Source: a phage
DNA: 47,066 bases
Sequence record: OZ365185.1
Direction: 5' to 3' (one strand)
Part shown: in pieces, positions 36,001 to 39,000 of the stretch
Layout of the letters: every line of letters begins with the position of its first letter
Numbering within the stretch: the stretch's first letter is position 1
Program-made: the position numbers

Positions 36001-39000
36001 GGGCTTCAATGAATTTCTGAACGTCATTCAAAAGACCCATGCTCACCCCCTGAATCCTGCCGGGATCTGGCTGTAGTCCACGTTGTCGTAACTGGCTTTG
36101 AAGTACGGGTCCTCGCGTCTGGCTGCAGATACCGCAGGAACTTCCCAGGATTCTTCGAAATGACGATCCGGGCCAAAGAACGTGACAGCCTGTTTCACAA
36201 ATTGTGTGCCGCTGTTACCCATCGCAGATACCCAGCCCGCGTAGCGTTTCACACCTGCCAGCATGGTTTCGGGTTTTACCCCCTCATTCAAACGGGCTTT
36301 CCAGGCTTTGAAGGCTGCAGATTTTGAATTGCCACCAGCACGTTTGGGGTATGCCAGCCATGCCTGCTCAAACTCCGGAGAGTATTCCGATCGGTTTGAA
36401 CGAACTCGCACAGACTCATCAGCAGATGCACCAACAGCTATTGGTTCATTGACTGGTTCTTTGACTGGTTCAAAAGAGTGACTGGTTCTGGGTGAATCTC
36501 CTGCACTACCCCCTGGTGCAACTCCTGCACTACCTGGTGAATTTGCTGCACCAGATAGTGAATTATTTGCACTACCCCCTAGTGAATCTCCTGCACCATC
36601 AAGATGAAGGAGATAGATATTACTTGAGTTACCTTTTTCACCTTTCCGGGTGACTTTTTTTACCAGCCCGGACTCACAAAGGGCCGCAATATGATTCATC
36701 ACAGAACGTTTGCTAATCTCGCACTGGTCAGCAATATGCTGGTAGCTGGGCCAGCACTCACCCTGATCGCTGGCATTATCAGCCAGCTTGATCAGAACCA
36801 GTTTTCGCAATGGATTACCCACTCGAATTTTCATCGCTTTAACCATCAGCTCCATACTCATGCTGCACCTCCGAGATGCTTCATGTTTTTTCCGGAGCGA
36901 AAGGCTATAAGCGGCATACTGACGCGGTAATTACGGCCCAGCGGTTCACAAATCACCTTCTGACATTCACGGTCAACCAGGCTAACACGTAGAACATGCC
37001 CTGCAGGCGTGGTGTACCACTGACCCGGACGAGGACAACGGAAAGTCTGATTGGTAAAACGTTTGAAAATATTCCGGATCATTTGCGCCCCCTTGCCTCT
37101 GAAGGGTTCAGCGACAAATTTATGAGGCAGGCCAGCGCCGAAGCATCATTAATATAGTCATATAAGCTAACAGCCAGCGGAGATTCGGCTTTTGCCAACA
37201 TAGGATAAAGCTGCTGCAGCCAGACCTGATGAATTGATGAAATGTAGGAACAGAGAACGCTGGCGTTATGTGCAACGTCGCTCGGTACAGCGGGCTTTGA
37301 AAGCTGTTTCTCCATCTGGTTAAAGGCATTGATGTATGCCTCTTTGAACTGGGCAGCACGTTTACCAGTGAAGCCCATGGCAAGAAACGCAAAACCGTCG
37401 CGGGTGATTTGATAGCAAGGAAGTTTGCGAGTACCGCCGTTGGGCTGGCGTACCAAAATTGATGTCTCCGCAAAATTGCGGGCACAAAACTCTGGAGAAC
37501 AATCCAAAATGCGGATCTTTTTCAGAACATCGTCATGACGTTTAGAGAAGAAGTCAGCAACAGCCAAAGAAGATGTAACAGCCTGACCATCAACGATGGC
37601 AATTTCAGGTTGAGAGAGGGTTGGGAGAGTAGTCATAGTGACAGCCCCGGTAGTCAGTTTTTTAGAAAACTCACCACATGGGACGCCAATCACAGAGGTG
37701 GTGAGACGTACAGGGTTGGCGTTACCGGAGACTACCGAACCCGGCCCGACCGAAGTCGGCCCTGTACGCCCCACCATAATTTGGGCGTAGCAATGCTCAT
37801 GACACGAAAAAACCGCATGAGCGCGGTTATGCTCAGTAATCAATTTCAGGACGCCAATCCCGGCACCCGCTTTATAAGGTGCCGGTACAGTGTAACGTCC
37901 CGGAATTGCAGAATCAATATGCTGCTGGTCCTTCACACTCAACAAAATCACGCCTGAATTTCCACAAAGGACTAAAGCACTCATGCGGGTAGTCTTTGCG
38001 AAGATAGATAACGCGCTGTGTTTCTGGCTCCCAACGAATAACATGAACATAAAGTCCTCTTCCGTCACGAAACCAGCGGTTAAGTTCCTGCACAACTCGC
38101 CCCCCACAGTCAGGTAAAGTTCTCTGTGGTTACTTACAGCCAGGTGATTTGGTAATCTGCATTCATGCCGTAACAACAGGTGTGCAGCGACACTGACCAC
38201 CAGCTGTTGCGACAAACGGTTATTTGCCGTTAAACTGTTCATGCGTTAGTTTCTCCACAGACACAAAACGCCACGACGCCCGGAGCTGCACACTCGCGGG
38301 CGTCACTCTTTTCTGGAGCGCAGAAAATTTTGTAGACCAGTGCCGCATGCTCCTGGAGCTTCGAAATTGACAGATACAACTCATCATTCATTGCTGTCTG
38401 CTCGTGTGGCTCCACTACCCCATCTTCGATTGCCGAACGAATCTGCTTTGAGTAACTCCCGATCTGTTCGATGACTTCCAGCAGGCGCTGGTTTATATCG
38501 GCGTTCTCTACTTCCTCAATGTCAGGAAGCGATACAAACACCCCACCAGCAGACTGTGCGACAGCATCCGCAATGTAGTGAGTGCCAGCCGCGCGCTGTA
38601 AAATCATTGCCCATCCCAGCGGGAAAATCTGATCGCCATCGGCACGAAGGCGATTGAATAAAGCGTTCTCTGTTACATCCAGCCACTCAGCTGCTTCAGC
38701 GTAACCACCCGGCAACGCCGCGATAGTTTTTCTGACCGCTTTCACGTACCACTCAGGCTGTTTTTCCACTTTCCAGTGATGCTTACCCACGGCTTACCTC
38801 CTTTTCCTGTGGTTTTAACTCATTCCGGTTTTGACTAGATTGAAAGCGAGCAGGATAGAGAATCTGCATTTCGCTGATTTCTCCCTTAAAAAAATTGGCC
38901 AGACGCTCTGCCAGATCGATAGATGGAATTTGTTCCAGTCTCTCAATACGACTCAGCGTCGCTGGATTAACCTGAACACCCGCAGCAACATGCTGCAAAG

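Follow-up and report, generated by a model that had tools for sequence, protein, structure and literature searches.

The classical origin within an initiator gene is that of bacteriophage lambda, for which four 18-bp iterons spaced 20/24/23 are annotated in the gene O. A combination of domains relevant to the present locus was described for DopC, of the DopC/DopE pair, a phage-derived replication protein that joins an HTH_36 N-terminal domain and a C-terminus related to DnaT (Brezellec et al. 2017, PMC5509034). As late as 2026, the way in which the PriA-PriB-DnaT preprimosome recruits DnaB-DnaC was still described as unknown (PMC13377028; PMC11087952). Here we describe the replication initiator gene and the putative origin of Escherichia phage 1720a-02, a marked Stx2d phage of the Citrobacter rodentium mouse model which is inducible and makes particles (PMC6328086). 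The stretch of DNA that was analyzed (47,066 nucleotides, sequence record OZ365185.1; hereafter the window) is 100% identical to the deposited phage (KF030445.1; window coordinate = record coordinate − 181). The initiator gene (36043..36861, minus strand) is an open reading frame (ORF) of 272 amino acids plus stop, and its product matches phrog_270, "replication initiation protein", over residues 3-271 (E 1e-88). On balance, sequence comparison favors the reading that this locus is a lambda-style origin-in-initiator replicon run by a single phage protein, the C-terminal tail of which probably recruits the DnaB-DnaC complex of the host.

Results

The initiator gene contains an array of five iterons, whose 15-bp dyad cores lie at 36492-36506, 36516-36530, 36537-36551, 36558-36572 and 36582-36596, at spacings of 24, 21, 21 and 24 nt. 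A first-pass annotation of the window had counted three to four copies of this ctcctgcactacc-type repeat; the repeat is indeed there, and the number of units in 36492..36596 is five. Each core is a dyad-symmetric GTGmA-N5-TGCAC, which is perfect in copy 2 (GTGCA-ACTCC-TGCAC). With up to three mismatches allowed, GTGAATCTCCTGCAC was matched by four of the five iterons inside 105 bp, and the total observed in the window, where 1.32 matches were expected, was reached in none of 100 shuffles. The iteron DNA codes for GDSLGGSANNSLSGAANSPGSAGVAPGGSAGDS, in agreement with the earlier description of the repeats in this gene as encoding a glycine-, serine- and alanine-rich linker. All five iterons were found in 79 of 80 related contigs, which are near-identical E. 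coli loci retrieved by a profile search with the core domain of the initiator. Pockets of low guanine-plus-cytosine (GC) content lie on both sides of the array, at 36440-36479 (37.5% GC) and at 36600-36659 (32-37% GC); in the composition profile the latter appears as a low-GC stretch on the N-domain side of the iterons (36600..36660), and it is one of two candidate unwinding regions. A further near-iteron, GTGTATCTCCTTCAC (two mismatches), is present on the plus strand at 35875-35889, ~600 bp away from the array and within the PerC-like gene, probably by chance.

Repeats were also sought in homologous initiators. Min27 O and the initiators of Salmonella S135, Vibrio D67 and Aeromonas AsXd-1, whose N-terminal domains are 48-69% identical to that of 1720a-02, all have three to five dyad repeats with 21/24-nt spacing at the same position in the gene. 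The half-sites differ among these homologues (GGGCAG-N3-CTGCCC in Min27, GCACA-N5-TGTGC in S135 and GTGACA-N3-TGTCAC in Vibrio D67), and the linker peptide differs as well, yet it is internally repeated in each. Repeat arrays occupy that place even in 569R4 and mEp460_4F5, initiators with other N-terminal domains. Since the repeat architecture is kept while the repeat sequence and the peptide change, the pattern is the one predicted by selection on protein-binding sites. The locus thus has the layout of a lambda-type origin, namely at least three to four dyad direct repeats about two helical turns apart, in linker-coding DNA with low-GC flanks. Together, these comparative data support the view that the five repeats behave as origin iterons, as the first-pass annotation had proposed from the repeats of 1720a-02, given that dyad arrays are present at the same place in every homologue with the same N-terminal domain.

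Adjoining iteron 1 is a conserved DNA element of 48 nt (36444..36491; 37-42% GC). As had been noted earlier, gactggttc (TGACTGGTTC) is present three times in the replication gene, and these are its only three occurrences in the 47-kb window (36450, 36462 and 36479); all three belong to this element, where the coding strand reads GAACCAGTCA (= tgactggttc). Two of the copies encode E-P-V, and the third, 17 nt away, is read in another frame as R-T-S-H. In Salmonella S135 and Vibrio D67 the nucleotide sequence of the element is almost the same, and in Min27 it is so in part, in contrast to the adjacent N-terminal domain, where third-codon identity is just 0.36-0.42. Outside the window, the element was mapped at L009 (~3389-3425) and L010 (~3329-3365), and it accompanies the module of N-terminal domain and iterons regardless of the C-terminal module. 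The copies, which had been grouped with the iterons, are therefore set apart from them: occurring in two frames and conserved as nucleotides, they form what is, as judged from these alignments, a real DNA-level element, different in kind from the five dyad iterons. Its candidate roles are those of an unwinding or loading site, of a host-factor site or of a recombination joint. An inverted copy of gactggttc at 36793-36802 was dismissed as a coincidence, because it falls in KLVLIKL codons and its nucleotides are not conserved in the homologues.

If the repeats were simply a slippage-prone, low-complexity coding linker with no function in cis, the origin would lie elsewhere. DNA repeats are frequent in low-complexity linkers, and the number of in-frame EPVK units does differ between isolates, from one to four copies among the 80 contigs. 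Against this, the iterons number five in nearly all of the same contigs, they are dyads at helical phasing whose sequence differs between homologues, one GAACCAGTCA copy stands in another frame, and across genera the conservation of the element extends to synonymous sites. A fixed number, dyad symmetry, phasing and frame-independent conservation are not expected of a linker maintained purely at the peptide level, and we regard this explanation as very improbable.

The initiator protein consists of an N-terminal winged-helix domain of the HTH_36 type, the repeat-encoded linker, a helical C-terminal core domain and a disordered tail. The N-terminal DNA-binding domain (residues 17-67; 36661..36813, minus strand) matched PF13730 with 44.1 bits against a cutoff of 25, and is the putative iteron binder; the protein also matched DnaD_N weakly, with 24.3 bits, which is under the cutoff of 27. 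The core domain (residues ~158-242; 36136..36390, minus strand) is small and belongs to a family for which there is no Pfam model; Pfam and NCBIfam scans assigned the C-terminal half to no family, and sequence searches of the PDB with the protein and with its profile gave only spurious matches. The tail (36046..36090, minus strand) ends in YDNVDYSQIPAGFRG, has a predicted local distance difference test (pLDDT) score below 50, i.e., predicted disorder, and carries the DnaT-type motif I-P-x-G-F-R-G at its extreme C-terminus. The gene product is variously named "primosomal protein I" (GenBank), "helix-turn-helix domain-containing protein" (RefSeq homologues) and "replication protein O" (other phage records).

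The first-pass annotation had called this initiator O-like. By BLASTP, its similarity to lambda O was not significant (best E 0.018, over 22 residues), and it had no match to PF04492 or PF09524 (Phage_rep_O, Phg_2220_C); the C-terminal domain of 569R4 O, used as a positive control, matched lambda O with E 1e-25. Nor was there a match to Rep_3 or related plasmid Rep families in the Pfam scan. On these sequence comparisons, "O-like" is an apt term for the function of the protein and not for its family membership. By BLASTP, no similarity to DnaT was found beyond the tail, and the DnaT three-helix domain (PF17948), which E. coli DnaT matches with E 4e-21, was not matched by the initiator even at E <=10. 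An hhalign comparison of the initiator core with DnaT gave a probability of 46%. In place of the N-terminal oligomerisation domain and the acidic linker by which DnaT binds PriB, the initiator has HTH_36.

No helicase, loader or primase was recognized by Pfam, NCBIfam or PHROG searches in the early-region ORFs on both sides of cI (20 ORFs were scanned against Pfam, and five of these also against NCBIfam and PHROGs). A tblastn search of the whole window with E. coli DnaC and DnaB, lambda P, a phage DnaC-like protein, a second loader type with its DnaB-like helicase, and primase-helicases as queries gave no loader, helicase or primase-helicase match, and the same search within ±8 kb in the 80 related viral contigs also found nothing. 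Within the limits of such searches, the phage is thus shown to encode no helicase, loader or primase, which bears out the earlier remark that no recognizable loader gene lies nearby. A module that does have one is found at locus L117, in which the N-terminal domain family, the core and the tail type are as in the 1720a-02 initiator and a DnaC-like gene starts ~6 nt past the stop codon; in 1720a-02 the slot held by the dnaC-like gene in related modules such as L117 is filled by the PerC-like gene. The absence of a loader gene, together with the DnaT-like tail, suggests that the phage probably borrows DnaC and DnaB from its host.

Alternatively, the phage could encode a loader that escapes recognition, in a 74-amino-acid ORF that precedes the initiator gene, in a 120-amino-acid ORF (40612-40974) or in the N-terminal half of the PerC-like protein. 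In favor of this, a number of the early ORFs could be assigned to no family, and the 74-amino-acid ORF is conserved (phrog_1153) and probably translationally coupled to the initiator. However, no ATPase motifs and no similarity to the DnaC, IstB, P, DciA or DnaD families were detected in the ORFs scanned; Pfam and NCBIfam gave no family for the 74-amino-acid ORF, which showed no sign of a loader; and 569R4 and mEp460_4F5, which combine another initiator with the same tail, have no ORF in the position of the 74-amino-acid ORF and are still loader-less. The suggestion that a loader lies in one of the small ORFs found no support, and we consider it highly unlikely.

The initiator ends in SQIPAGFRG and E. 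coli DnaT in SQIPPGFRG, eight of the nine residues being identical; where DnaT reads PDSQ, the initiator reads DYSQ. Across 120 enterobacterial DnaT clusters, SEPDxxIPxGFRG is near-invariant except at x, and in the tails of the initiators from the 80 phage contigs x is also the main varying position. A back-translated D-x-x-IPxGFRG pattern identified 80 viral loci, in 76 of which it forms the exact C-terminus of a protein; 72 of these 76 could be placed in families, and they are mostly proteins of ~260-400 amino acids, some truncated by contig ends. The parts preceding the tail in the 72 loci belong to at least six unrelated families, comprising the core type of 1720a-02, the lambda-O-type C-terminal domain (E 1e-25 against lambda O), three others and the genuine DnaT C-terminal domain.

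In 37 of the 72 loci, a DnaC-like gene, whose product shares 47-51% identity with the DnaC of E. coli, begins 6-21 nt past the stop codon, and 34 loci have none of the tested loader, helicase or primase-helicase types. The sole match at the one other locus (L158) is weak, primase-helicase-like and ~4.7 kb downstream. A lambda-P-type or DnaB-type gene was found at none of the 72. In the reverse test, the upstream neighbor ended in [IV]PxGF[RTS]G in 71 of 80 viral contigs that had been chosen for their DnaC-like gene, and in near variants of this motif in two more. When one genome per species was scanned, all 29 bona fide terminal motifs were in Enterobacterales, 27 of them followed by dnaC or a dnaC-like gene. 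Matches to the tail motif in other phyla were rejected as chance, since they lay in short or non-terminal frames. Because the DnaT-type tail is linked to DnaC-type loaders in both directions, these comparative data support the earlier idea that the initiator recruits host DnaC and DnaB through its own C-terminus. The motif string was not found in a literature search, nor did this yield a description in which the tail figures as a motif of its own, exchangeable and coupled to loaders of the DnaC type.

The main rival to a contact with DnaC is a contact of the tail with PriA (or PriA-PriB), by which the initiator would be an origin-tethered substitute for DnaT that builds the host restart primosome, with DnaB-DnaC arriving by the usual preprimosome route. 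The C-terminal domain of DnaT docks onto PriA HD2/CTD via a conserved hydrophobic interface (PMC13377028), the tail is itself hydrophobic (I-P-x-G-F), and some phage proteins have the whole DnaT C-terminal domain together with the tail. The text and supplements of that paper do not state which DnaT residues touch PriA or whether the tail was resolved in the cryo-electron microscopy (cryo-EM) structures. On the other side, the tail tracks DnaC-type loader genes in both directions, and not PriA-related genes, and the initiator lacks the DnaT three-helix domain (no PF17948), which is described as the PriA-contacting part (PMC13377028). We therefore judge a PriA contact unlikely as the role of the tail.

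Natural exchanges of the tail provide a second line of evidence. The initiator of the Aeromonas phage AsXd-1 shares its N-terminal domain and its core with that of 1720a-02, has a linker of the iteron type, and is 68.7% identical through residue 265. Its tail, by contrast, is GFSEQDYG..NW, ending ..LPVSGFSEQDYGQSDCNW, and the genes that follow encode a different AAA+ loader and a DnaB-like helicase. This second tail type (..LP[IV]SGFSEQDYG...NW) was present in 38 of 38 contigs with that AAA+ loader, and the DnaT-type tail in none of them; the order of tail, AAA+ loader and DnaB-like helicase can be followed at L293 (AsXd-1; 3001-6083) and L004 (2497-5697). The loader after the second tail is ~30% identical to DnaC and has an N-terminal cysteine-rich extension, and the DnaB-like helicase comes next. 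Similarly, where a lambda-O-type C-terminal domain bears the DnaT tail, the accompanying gene is DnaC-like or there is no loader, but lambda O, which has its own tail, is accompanied by P. Yet another tail is carried by the initiator of Vibrio D67, whose host genus reportedly has DciA in place of DnaC (PMC8216460). Taken together, these comparisons show that, in sequence, the partner for helicase delivery changes along with the last 15-25 residues, and that tails of the DnaT type pair with DnaC-type loaders, either phage-encoded or, presumably, those of the host.

The same exchanges bear on the proposal that the tail has no part in recruitment, and instead helps single-stranded DNA (ssDNA) binding or self-association while the helicase arrives via the helical core domain or a host DnaA/SSB route. 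Different tails are found behind one and the same core, and the type of loader follows the tail, not the core; moreover, the tail is joined to at least six unrelated preceding domains, and a role in ssDNA binding would leave both the link to DnaC-type loaders and the restriction to Enterobacterales unexplained. A finding in favor of it is discussed below; even so, we hold it to be improbable, somewhat more so than the PriA contact.

The early operon runs on the minus strand. Upstream of the initiator are a cro-like gene, a cII-like gene (CP76), a Rha/Ash gene and the 74-amino-acid ORF (36858..37082, minus strand; a PHROG of unknown function), whose stop codon overlaps the initiator start codon (ATGA), so that the two are probably translationally coupled. 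The Rha/Ash ORF (37079-38242, minus strand) is mechanically 387 amino acids long and is annotated in GenBank with 864 nt only; with the Ash and Rha domains at residues 117-312, the true start of this protein is uncertain. Downstream, the PerC-like regulator (yfdN-like; 35552..36046, minus strand; PF06069, E 5e-9; phrog_1324) is the next gene, as the first-pass annotation had it, followed by genes for a Dam methylase, a LexA-DNA-binding-domain protein, RusA, a KilA-N protein, DUF968 and Q. The LexA-related gene (34576-34902, minus strand) encodes a 108-amino-acid protein that comprises the LexA DNA-binding domain only (PF01726, E 3e-19), without the peptidase domain, and it is kept in the module beside Dam and RusA. 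Elsewhere in the window, a chloramphenicol acetyltransferase gene (~23799-24458, plus strand) and an aminoglycoside 3'-phosphotransferase gene (~28650-29444, minus strand) interrupt the lysis region and stx2A, by which the sequence is recognized as an engineered derivative of the phage.

The module is widespread. A match to the initiator gene was found in 2718 of 5426 complete E. coli genomes, covering at least 80% of the gene in 897, and the deposited mEp460 genome contains the same module at 97.8% nucleotide identity. The initiator is 97.4% identical in amino acid sequence to that of Stx2a_WGPS2 (AP012537.1), the Eru6 reference phage. Together with a Rha-family gene and an HTH_36 gene after cI, this identity to Stx2a_WGPS2 places the module in Eru6; the Eru1-3 classes (Llarena 2021) were considered for it and gave no match.

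Discussion

The results lead us to propose the following mechanism. Once the repressor is lost, the early rightward operon (minus strand here) would make the 272-amino-acid initiator, whose N-terminal winged-helix domain would bind, probably as dimers, to the five iterons at 36492-36596 within the DNA that codes for its own linker. The initiator-iteron complex would then open an adjacent low-GC segment, for which 36444-36491 and 36600-36660 are the candidates, and the disordered tail (...SQIPxGFRG) would dock the host DnaB6-DnaC6 complex, most likely via DnaC, and hand DnaB to the opened origin, after which the host primase and Pol III would take over. Docking of host DnaB-DnaC by the tail is proposed because of the gene linkage and the natural tail swaps. 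More generally, the last 15-25 residues of such initiators would act as an exchangeable address label for "which loader".

Several considerations weigh against this mechanism. No more than ~40 nt separate the codons of the tail from the start of the dnaC-like gene, and plain physical linkage may account for some of the co-occurrence; since many of the loci counted are closely related, the counts overstate the number of independent events. A 2026 cryo-EM study of the preprimosome favors the N-terminal domain of DnaT as the recruiter of DnaB/DnaC (PMC13377028), and this domain is not present in the phage initiator. Furthermore, DnaT without residues 154-179 has lower affinity and cooperativity in ssDNA binding (PMC4132743), so that the tail may be DNA-binding instead. 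Binding of the iterons by the N-terminal domain and a contact of the tail with DnaC are both predicted from sequence, and the flank of the array that melts could be either of the two candidate segments.

The distribution of the tail also suggests a wider hypothesis. The host dnaT-dnaC operon is laid out like the phage pairs of a tail-bearing gene and a DnaC-like gene. The viral contigs that bear on this are L002 (2239-3518), L158, L095, L125 and L143, and some phage replication proteins have the full DnaT C-terminal domain and tail. The shared layout and the existence of phage proteins with a DnaT C-terminal domain suggest that dnaT-dnaC derives from a phage cassette. In its full form, the hypothesis holds that the ..PDxxIPxGFRG tail of DnaT and of unrelated phage initiators is a docking motif for DnaC-type loaders or DnaB6-DnaC6, and hence the missing helicase-recruiting contact of PriA-PriB-DnaT; that dnaT-dnaC is a domesticated phage cassette of "initiator C-terminus plus loader"; and that 1720a-02 is the minimal case, which uses the DnaC of its host. 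We put this forward tentatively, as a possibility that falls somewhat short of being probable.

For the biochemistry of replication restart, the two-way linkage of the DnaT-type tail with DnaC-type loaders offers a specific and easily mutated motif with which to address an open question. The module also drives the replication of Eru6-type Stx2 phages, so its host requirements bear on the amplification of the toxin gene. Finally, 1720a-02 is a clean case from nature of a phage replicon run by a single protein, whose exchangeable tail, ~15 residues long, appears to determine the partner in helicase loading.

Comparison with known systems

The closest parallel to this locus is the lambda system of O, ori-lambda and P. 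In both, the origin lies in the segment of the initiator gene that codes for the interdomain linker, four or five dyad iterons succeed one another at intervals of about two helical turns, next to a stretch of low GC content, the initiator gene comes after genes like cro and cII in the early operon, and an N-terminal domain binds DNA while the C-terminal part brings the helicase, although in 1720a-02 this division of labor is inferred. The two differ in that the N-terminal domain of 1720a-02 is HTH_36 and not Phage_rep_O, the C-terminal domain is of a different, Pfam-less family, the tail is of the DnaT type and not that of lambda O, and there is no P gene, a PerC-like gene being downstream. 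E. coli DnaT shares the motif at the extreme C-terminus, and in related phages the gene with this tail stands directly before a DnaC-like gene, as dnaT stands before dnaC. Unlike DnaT, the initiator has neither the N-terminal oligomerisation domain nor the three-helix ssDNA-binding domain, and it would be targeted by sequence-specific iterons, whereas DnaT is targeted by PriA/PriB at forks. Iteron plasmids present a further parallel: their Rep proteins (pSC101 RepA, RK2 TrfA) are single winged-helix initiators that act with direct-repeat iterons and host DnaB-DnaC loading, and 1720a-02 would be similar in this regard. However, plasmid iterons, unlike those of 1720a-02, lie outside the rep gene, and plasmids usually need DnaA boxes too.

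Among phage and phage-derived modules, the corresponding region of Eru6 Stx phages has the same pair of Rha-family and HTH_36 genes after cI; the paper that defined it (Fagerlund et al. 2022, PMC8951638) is a typing scheme, in which an origin, a mechanism, the lack of a loader and the tail all go unmentioned. DopC differs in that it has a DnaT C-terminal domain and a lambda-P-like partner, DopE, and no iterons were found there (PMC5509034), whereas 1720a-02 has a different core domain, is DnaT-like in the tail only, has iterons and has no partner gene. The origin-in-initiator layout is classical, as in lambda, and the link of an HTH_36 initiator with a DnaT C-terminal domain is known from DopC (PMC5509034). 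As an origin the locus is ordinary; its interest is that of a loader-less replicon whose tail suggests a testable answer in replication restart.

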